64,000 bases of DNA from a virus (IMGVR_UViG_3300005544_000020:128001-192000); one strand, 5' to 3'. Numbered from the stretch's first letter, positions 41,979 through 42,371 are shown. Translations and numbers: made by a program. The notes: a model not told the origin generated them from the sequence alone.

Positions 41979-42335
41979 TCATTGGACGGACTCCGCATGT
42001 TCCGGAGTCCAGAGCTGAATCTTCTTGAAGGCCTTCCGCGCTTGCCCCGAGATCGGCTCGGTCGCGAAGGCCGTCGCCTGATCGTTCAGATCGCTTTCGA
42101 TGAAGAGGTAGTTCCGGATTCCCTTTTGATCGCAGGCCGCAGCCGCCGCGCGCAACGCCTCTTCATTGGGCAATGAGAAGAGCACGAACGAGGACACGTC
42201 ATCAGGATTGCCGAAACGGATTCCAGCTTCGTGCGCAGCGTGAGCGGCTTGGATGGTCTGGTGAGTAGGAGTGAGGTCGGTTCGGATGCCGATGTAGACG
42301 TACTTCTTGGGGGCGGCGACCTACGTTTCGTTCAT
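41979..42335 (-). CDS. Pth2-like peptidyl-tRNA hydrolase with in-frame TAG at codon 5 (42321-42323)
   Basis: M-N-E-T-amber-VAAPKKYVYIGIRTDLTPTHQTIQAAHAAHEA...FIESDLNDQATAFATEP; the ORF track caught only the last 72 aa. Confidence 0.75.
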
Positions 42336-42342
42336 GATCAAG

Positions 42343-42371
42343 AGACTACTGCATAGGCGCATCTGTGTCAA
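42343..42371 (-). promoter_or_regulatory. Promoter TTGACA-N17-TAGTCT, leaderless start at ATG 42335
   Basis: Perfect -35, 17-nt spacer, ATG 7 nt after the -10 box, no SD. Confidence 0.72.

Follow-up and report, generated by a model that had tools for sequence, protein, structure and literature searches.

A candidate stop-codon gate matched to a phage suppressor tRNA at the start of a Pth2-fold protein gene

Phages in which the amber codon is read by a suppressor tRNA have been described among those with genetic code 15 (TAG decoded as Gln), including crAss-like phages, Lak phages and others (Borges et al., bioRxiv 10.1101/2021.08.26.457843; PMC9523058). The phage-encoded tRNA makes genes with in-frame TAG codons translatable, and the proposed role of this arrangement is the timing of expression. 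Engineered feed-forward circuits that combine an early amber codon with a co-expressed suppressor tRNA function as AND gates or leak dampeners (PMC7969014; PMC13276491). An early in-frame stop in a translation-factor gene is present in prfB, the gene of release factor 2 (RF2), where UGA leads either to abortive termination or, through escape by +1 frameshifting, to the full-length protein, an arrangement that senses RF2 itself. The bar minigenes of phage lambda are two-codon open reading frames (ORFs) that cause peptidyl-tRNA drop-off. The gene analyzed here (41979..42335, minus strand) resides in a 64,000-nucleotide stretch of viral DNA (IMGVR_UViG_3300005544_000020:128001-192000, hereinafter the window), which lies within one virus record of 236,090 bp, the extent of all genome-wide scans reported below. 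It encodes a predicted peptidyl-tRNA hydrolase 2 (Pth2)-fold protein, and it is highly probable, given the conservation of an early in-frame stop (codon 5 in the window gene), that the translation of this protein is gated by that stop and that the stop is read by the phage's own tRNA-CUA.

The likeness to each of the known systems is partial. Unlike the code-15 phages, in which numerous late genes contain TAG and the code as a whole is in effect a different one, the genome analyzed here uses TAG as a normal stop throughout, and the gated cassette consists of one small gene (joined in some lineages by an HD-domain partner) with a single stop at codon 3-5 and a linked tRNA. The text of the preprint on recoded phages mentions no hydrolase client (bioRxiv 10.1101/2021.08.26.457843). 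In contrast to prfB, the reading frame would remain unchanged and a dedicated tRNA would provide the escape; a feedback through the hydrolase is hypothetical. The synthetic gates are engineered, whereas the cassette, if correctly interpreted, would be their natural, widely conserved counterpart. Similarly to the lambda bar minigenes, an ORF of 2-4 codons ends in a stop, here directly ahead of a Pth-like gene, but this mini-ORF is in frame and continuous with the downstream gene.

Read-through by suppressor tRNAs in code-15 phages, the early regulatory stop of prfB and engineered amber gates are already known. The novelty appears to lie in the pairing of a single tRNA with a single stop codon of one particular gene, which is natural and widely conserved and occurs in phages with an otherwise standard code; a full-text literature search found no description of such a cassette. 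Suppressor tRNAs recur in phages with an otherwise standard code, their targets so far unnamed, and the cassette provides a concrete, conserved client. The underlying logic would be that of lock and key, with the stop at codon 3-5 as the lock and the linked tRNA as the key, and is amenable to testing. The cassette may also represent an evolutionary stepping stone to full stop-codon reassignment in phages.

The gated gene and the suppressor tRNA in the window

In the 5'-to-3' direction of the minus strand, the locus begins with a promoter-like element (42343..42371) that recurs in relatives and consists of TTGACA (42371-42366), a 17-nucleotide spacer and TAGTCT (42348-42343). Seven nucleotides further lies an ATG (42335-42333), followed by the codons AAC GAA ACG and the in-frame TAG (42323-42321), the next base being G. 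The architecture of this gate (42321..42335), i.e., sense codons for MNET and a stop, is kept in relatives. The frame stays open from the TAG to the TGA at 41981-41979, leaving an ORF of 113 codons behind the TAG. The read-through product (P0001, MNET-x-VAAPKKYVYIGIRTDL...QAAHAAHEAG...DQATAFATEPI...LW) would comprise 118 residues, of which residues 10-109 match phrog_1866, with the best homologue at E = 3e-49. The first canonical in-frame start past the TAG is a GTG located 42 codons on, and gene callers that begin there report a truncated product of 64-72 residues. The promoter-ATG-TAG layout described in an earlier note on this DNA is exact at the base level. The same is the case for two of its other claims, namely that no alternative start (ATG, GTG or TTG) separates the TAG from the conserved strand YVYIGIR in the window, and that the gene stop is close (~5-7 nt) to the first of the tRNA mimics discussed below, with no terminator-like site between them.

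A simple consensus sigma-70 scan leaves the element at 42343-42371 below the threshold and unlisted because TAGTCT fits TATAAT at only three of the six positions. The TTGACA-N17-TAGTCT arrangement is nevertheless kept, with unrelated spacers, in relatives L002, L004 and L029. The start codon (ATG or GTG) follows the -10-like TAGTCT at a distance of exactly 7 nt in the window, L002 and L029, and has no Shine-Dalgarno sequence ahead of it; other clades of the gated family possess normal Shine-Dalgarno sequences. Given that this distance is conserved in three lineages, the mRNA of the window gene is probably leaderless. Another pattern, TTGACA/T-N16-18-TATACT, occurs in 8 copies across the 236-kb genome and, by its sequence, is probably the phage's host-type promoter consensus. 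The copies within the window are at 19941, 49950, 57470 (minus) and 59877 (plus), and a GGAGG Shine-Dalgarno sequence is usually found 20-35 nt downstream of such sites.

The tRNA gene with the CUA anticodon (45483..45556, minus strand; encoded CCA, A73), which the earlier note had proposed as the suppressor, is genuine: it is called by ARAGORN and scores 54.2 bits against the Rfam tRNA model when the region is searched alone. An Rfam scan of the whole window at the gathering threshold lists two tRNA mimics and misses this gene, due to a filter artefact. Across the genome, ARAGORN identifies three tRNA-shaped genes, two of which are anticodon-less mimics, and the third, the tRNA-CUA, is the only canonical one. 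The closest cellular match to its 3' half is tRNA-Glu from metagenome-assembled genomes of Acidobacteriota, in an alignment that is not decisive, and the bodies of the suppressor tRNAs vary from clade to clade.

Apart from the gate, TAG behaves as an ordinary terminator in this genome. In crude codon-usage gene calls made with the standard code, which cover 87% of the genome, TAG terminates 104 of the 446 genes (~23%), TGA being the commonest stop. In-frame coding sequence follows the stop in 24% of the TAG-ended genes and in 23% of the TAA-ended ones, and because these frequencies are equal, TAG is considered a normal stop here. The genome was also scanned for a start followed by 1-7 codons, a stop and a long ORF without an early start, with the coding signal measured between the stop and the first start; the gated gene is the sole case with a positive signal. 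Therefore, the tRNA-CUA has one evident client. It is presumed to be the decoder of the gate codon.

Conservation of the gate and its match to the anticodon

Homologous loci were taken by protein similarity from viral, genome and metagenome collections and scored with one script; the counts given below refer to the 46 distinct loci of this first survey with an intact 5' end. The homologues in the databases fall into two length classes, of ~105 residues (starting with MYIVVR...) and ~70 residues, and the DNA of each contains a short ORF with an in-frame TAG upstream of the domain (e.g., VKDT*, MKET*, MKHT*). Each of the 46 loci has a start codon followed in the same frame by a stop, and in the leadered ones a well-spaced Shine-Dalgarno sequence precedes the start codon. 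The stop is TAG in 45 loci and TAA in one. The mini-ORF is two codons long in 27 loci and four codons long in 16, the last sense codon before the stop is ACN (Thr) in 37, the base 3' of the stop is a purine in 44, and the linker from the stop to the domain spans 4 to 25 codons. A purine in this position is the classic context for good amber suppression in studies on E. coli, as reportedly found by Bossi in 1983 and by Miller and Albertini in the same year. In the homologues P0014 and P0037, an apparent Q at the gate was considered as a sense codon and ruled out, the DNA having a TAG that the source pipeline reads as Q. The family encompasses 2,431 representatives at E <= 1e-3, and an alignment of 40 diverse members is too divergent to seed a scan. 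The gate is found in every major clade of the tree, in which the ungated pair L143/L144 is nested beside jumbo-phage forms.

In 35 of the 46 loci, the fetched flank encodes, on the strand of the gated gene, a suppressor tRNA with the matching anticodon, typically located 110-200 nt ahead of the gate or 720-820 nt behind it; most of the loci that lack it in the flank are short contigs. In L012, the suppressor tRNA is 7 kb away from the gate, and in L013 there is a CUA-like tRNA with an anticodon loop of six bases. The single TAA locus (L067/68) has a tRNA-UUA 160 nt upstream, and its sisters L066 and L070 combine a TAG gate with a tRNA-CUA; the tRNAs align, with the difference at position 34. 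A second sample, seeded with different peptide patterns, yields 31 more TAG-gated loci and one TGA-gated locus, L158 (MMNKNTAYE-TGA-AQKHFFVFVR), where the sole tRNA on the 67.8-kb contig is a UCA on the same strand, ~4.5 kb upstream. A further TGA variant (MSET-TGA-IKKHFYV) resides on a contig too short to show a tRNA, and no relatives of the TGA variant P0060 are found among viral contigs. In the DNA sampled, all three stop codons occur at the gate, each with the matching tRNA where the DNA is long enough. The earlier note had envisaged that the full-length protein is made through UAG read-through by the CUA tRNA. This proposal is supported by the conserved stop and by its covariation with the anticodon (TAG with CUA, TAA with UUA and TGA with UCA), and with the stop kept in 46 of the 46 loci, the TAG is not a sporadic feature of the homologues. 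As far as the available sequences tell, the gate is conserved, in frame, matched to the anticodon of a linked tRNA and unique in this genome.

According to the gating model, ribosomes would initiate at the ATG next to the promoter, on an mRNA that is probably leaderless, synthesize M-N-E-T and reach the UAG. Release factor 1 (RF1) would then terminate translation and a four-residue peptide would result, unless the tRNA-CUA decodes the stop. A tRNA-CUA that is expressed, charged and able to compete with RF1 would allow in-frame continuation up to the 118-residue protein, and the position of the stop at codon 3-5 would keep failed translation cheap. The identity of the inserted residue is probably irrelevant because the N-terminal tail that contains it is disordered and non-conserved, so that the codon would function as a gate rather than as a coding position.

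A tblastn search against GenBank phages identifies the family in 24 jumbo-phage records. The gates include MAQ-TAG in GAP32, MTH-TAG in Serratia phage BF, MAH-TAG in Kaldavass, MT-TAG in ME3 and ML-TAG in RsoM2USA; the annotations of the GAP32, ME3, Serratia BF and RsoM2USA genomes use the standard code. A tRNA-CUA is encoded in each of these four genomes, the Kaldavass genome having been left out of the genome-wide tRNA search. It is located 430 nt upstream of the gate in ME3 (where it is annotated as "tRNA-OTHER"), ~3 kb off the gate in GAP32 and BF, and ~13 kb away, within the tRNA gene region, in RsoM2USA. XacN1 and Xoo-sp13 encode a fusion protein with an HD domain ahead of the Pth2-like domain; it begins with MK-TAG-TIKAM and MKK-TAG-NFNLM, respectively, upstream of the annotated start. 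The paper on XacN1 reports that no target could be identified for the CUA tRNAs of this phage (PMC5852040), and the paper on RsoM2USA names no target of the suppressor tRNA (PMC8504454). For annotation, this means that GenBank records of well-known jumbo phages either lack the gene or present it in shortened form: it is unannotated in Serratia BF and RsoM2USA, has a truncated call in GAP32, and its annotated start falls past the TAG in ME3 and XacN1. Because the cassette is present in cultured phage-host pairs (ME3/Acinetobacter, GAP32/Cronobacter and BF/Serratia), the gating model is directly testable.

Several observations tell against this model. In the window, the tRNA-CUA is encoded on the same strand as the gated gene, 3.2 kb upstream, and is not adjacent to it. 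L016/17 is TAG-gated, and there is no CUA tRNA among the 27 distinct tRNAs sampled (31 matches) from this contig, which is 31% complete; G007 and G009 are gated as well, with no suppressor tRNA in their partly sampled tRNA sets. Conversely, a suppressor tRNA is still encoded near the genes of two ungated relatives, L172 and L179, whereas the ungated L143, L144, L171, L188-190 and L197 start normally and have a flank free of suppressor tRNAs. Furthermore, a strong constitutive suppressor should be costly because about a quarter of the phage's genes end in TAG, and the suppression may therefore be weak or regulated. Finally, in 21 of the 46 loci a GTG, TTG or ATG lies between the stop and the domain, so that downstream initiation is possible there.

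The last observation is the one on which a different explanation can be built, namely, that the ORF of 2-4 codons encodes an independent leader peptide ending at the UAG, that the Pth2-like ORF is (re)initiated downstream, often at a non-canonical start, and that the tRNA is coincidental or serves other genes. The starts in these 21 relatives are 1-25 codons past the stop, those annotated in XacN1 and ME3 lie past the TAG, and very short ORFs are known regulatory devices. However, no canonical start precedes the conserved first strand in the other 25 loci, the window included; the gate is TAG in 45 of the 46 loci though TGA is the commonest stop in this genome; and reinitiation does not predict that the stop type tracks the linked anticodon, which makes a leader peptide improbable. 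The same tracking, with stop codon and anticodon changing in step, weighs against the somewhat less probable idea that the codon-5 UAG is read at a low level by near-cognate host tRNAs, so that the output reports RF1 activity and the phage tRNA serves other purposes. For such a sensor, prfB is a precedent, and the 3.2 kb that separate tRNA and gate in the window would be of no concern. Yet a same-strand matching suppressor tRNA is tightly linked to the gate in 35 loci, and the one canonical tRNA of this genome has no evident client other than the gated gene.

A genome-wide code 15, in which TAG would be a sense codon throughout and the gated gene one of many, is very improbable. Suppressor tRNAs are a hallmark of recoded phages (bioRxiv 10.1101/2021.08.26.457843), and the distant relatives L023-L025, called with TAG=Q by the source pipelines, have more in-frame TAGs in the next gene. 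In the genome analyzed here, however, TAG ends ~23% of the crude gene calls and behaves like TAA, and no other ORF combines an early gate with a coding signal. Moreover, GAP32, ME3, Serratia BF and RsoM2USA are gated despite their standard-code annotation, and general recoding leaves the conservation of the stop at codon 3-5 unexplained. Next to no probability is assigned to the idea that the gene is decaying and that its TAG reflects a nonsense mutation or a miscalled base: none of the 46 distinct relatives, which reach down to 34% protein identity, lacks the stop, cultured phages that were sequenced independently have it too, and the domain behind it is intact and well conserved. An assembly error, in particular, is untenable because TAG itself is conserved in 45 of the 46 relatives.

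Initiation at the UAG by an initiator-like tRNA-CUA was considered and rejected. The Shine-Dalgarno spacing fits the ATG, not the TAG; the ATG of the window is located 7 nt past the -10 element; and the tRNA-CUA has a G1-C72 pair and no run of three G-C pairs in the anticodon stem.

Some ungated relatives have sense codons at the position of the gate, which may hint at the inserted residue or else mark gate loss. L179 has MEFR-GAA(E) where its relatives have MEFR-TAG or MGFT-TAA, L188 has MT-CAA(Q), and L197 has MNET-CCC(P), with the same MNET prefix as in the window. In L016/L017, where the gate is ATG TCG TAG, a tRNA (4916-4992) located 100 nt upstream has the anticodon loop CCCAUAA, i.e., anticodon CAU with C in place of U at position 33.

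The Pth2-fold protein and the possible purpose of the gate

The Pth2-fold domain (42000..42308, minus strand; residues ~10-112) is assigned on the basis of an AlphaFold model, Foldseek and VIA-align. The alignment-based model has a predicted local distance difference test (pLDDT) score of 86.9, with residues 1-10 averaging 64, and the gate residue sits in this low-confidence N-terminal tail, ahead of strand 1. A Foldseek search of the PDB retrieves Pth2 chains as the top 13 matches except for Atu0240 (2gax), and PTRHD1 and archaeal Pth2 lead the matches in the AlphaFold database (AFDB). VIA-align superimposes the model on six Pth2 entries with Z scores of 12.7-14.5 and a root-mean-square deviation of 1.9-2.1 Å over 98-103 residues; beyond the related 2gax and 1rzw, the next unrelated match has a Z score of 4.2. 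Over its full length, the domain has the same alpha/beta fold as Pth2/PTRHD1 (PF01981; 3erj, 1wn2, 1q7s, 2zv3, 1xty), with which it also shares the V-R-x-D-L strand and the Q-x-x-H-A helix motif; both are kept in the profile alignment to archaeal Pth2.

The earlier label "Pth2-like" thus stands by fold, in the Foldseek and VIA-align comparisons, and fails by Pfam for the window protein. The read-through product has no match in Pfam at E <= 1, PTH2 (PF01981) included, and none in NCBIfam; a six-frame search of the genome with PF01981 finds no match, and a profile search against PDB sequences returns spurious matches only. PF01981 is weakly matched by 17 of the 31 homologues (best E = 5e-5). In the Sulfolobus Pth2, catalysis depends on a lysine in the GK motif and an aspartate in the DAG motif. 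In an hhalign comparison with archaeal Pth2 (L141), His24 stands opposite the GK lysine, and His or Gln occupies this position across the family, which, like the missing Pfam match, makes the enzymatic function uncertain. Asp82 is invariant in the family alignment, and the loop after the conserved Asp is shorter than in Pth2. Accordingly, the product is regarded as a Pth2-fold protein that probably acts on the 3' end of tRNA or a tRNA-like RNA.

With respect to purpose, the gate could tie the production of a tRNA-3'-end enzyme to the activity of the phage tRNA. Within the gating explanation, product feedback is the reading we prefer, if only tentatively: excess hydrolase would deacylate the suppressor and so shut off its own synthesis, as in prfB. 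Alternatively, the gate could act as a feed-forward element or timer, or as a leak-proof AND gate against leaky or premature expression. Feedback is ranked above these because it would explain why this enzyme and its HD partner are the ones that are gated. Further ideas raised by the earlier note, namely the sensing of release-factor status, peptidyl-tRNA drop-off at the mini-ORF, co-transcription with the tRNA mimics and a part in translation rescue or anti-defense, are speculative. A broader interpretation, under which the cassette is a self-referential homeostat or a counter-defense kit for tRNA 3' ends, seems rather unlikely as a whole. Acceptor ends of tRNAs would be cleared of acyl, peptidyl or toxin-added groups by the Pth2-fold protein and, in other lineages, by its TAG-gated or fused HD partner as well. 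Through the gate codon, production of these enzymes would depend on the charging state of a dedicated reporter tRNA, in a prfB-type product feedback borne by a tRNA, and the CCA-ended, anticodon-less tRNA-like RNAs of the window clade, transcribed directly after the gene, would be decoys or substrates of the same pathway.

Neighboring RNAs and genes

Behind the gated gene, the minus strand encodes four CCA-ended tRNA-like RNAs without an anticodon loop (41649..41973), which are identified by folding and, for the A units, by ARAGORN and Rfam. The units alternate in the order B (~41900-41973), A (41821-41898), B (~41729-41800) and A (41649-41727). A long stem with a GCAA or GAAA (GNRA) tetraloop at its tip stands in place of the anticodon arm. 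The two A units are called as tRNA by both ARAGORN and Rfam, and the fold z-scores of the units range from -2.1 to -3.8. The B units were also considered as a hepatitis delta virus (HDV)-like theta ribozyme or another known RNA family, and have no Rfam match. Such RNAs are found behind the gene only in the 8-member clade of the window, the distant clades being without them.

Four genes in all are located between the tRNA-CUA and the gated gene in the window, and three of these (43204..45463, minus strand) were analyzed through Pfam, structural models with Foldseek, and tblastn synteny. The first (44714-45463, minus strand) encodes a 249-residue protein, the model of which (pLDDT 85) shows a weak similarity to the Tpt1/KptA-like ADP-ribosyltransferase fold. 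The top 19 PDB matches in Foldseek are all Tpt1/KptA tRNA 2'-phosphotransferases, with weak E values of 0.009-0.17 and most alignments spanning ~100 columns, followed by DarT and toxin ADP-ribosyltransferases; judging from these structural matches, the product may be an RNA-end ADP-ribosyltransferase. The second gene (43560-44717, minus strand) encodes a 385-aa protein without an assigned family. The third (43204-43560, minus strand) encodes a small GNAT acetyltransferase, with Pfam matches to Acetyltransf_7/1/10 above the cut-off. GNAT toxins that acetylate aminoacyl-tRNA are detoxified by Pth enzymes, and for this reason, the location of a GNAT gene beside the gated Pth2-like gene may, by analogy, be meaningful.

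The trio of the Tpt1-like, 385-aa and GNAT proteins is encoded between the tRNA and the gated gene in both the window and L026. In L029, the same trio (2782-5010) is found downstream of the gene and its tRNA-like RNAs; judged by this gene order, the cassette is rearranged with its parts still linked. Elsewhere, an RNA ligase is encoded nearby in L004 and a CCA-adding enzyme in ME3. By association only, the gene context points to tRNA-end chemistry.

In many lineages, the Pth2-like gene is adjoined by a gene of an HD-domain family (motifs HDxGKPxC and FPNHA) with an in-frame TAG of its own. This TAG is codon 47 in GAP32, BF and Kaldavass, falls within codons 38-42 in L024, L025 and L033, and is codon 4 in RsoM2USA. 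No HD-domain homologue is present in the window genome. The HD genes are located at 2818-3384 in L075 (GAP32), at the same coordinates in L078 and L080, and at 401-961 in L024, 466-1056 in L025, 3403-3981 in L077, 1943-2803 in L074 (XacN1) and 1940-2806 in L079.

Elsewhere in the window, the gene at 46513-47982 (minus strand) encodes a 489-residue protein, the N-terminal part of which resembles the sacsin-like, ATP-binding HATPase-type domain (NCBIfam NF047352, E = 2e-6, below the cut-off).

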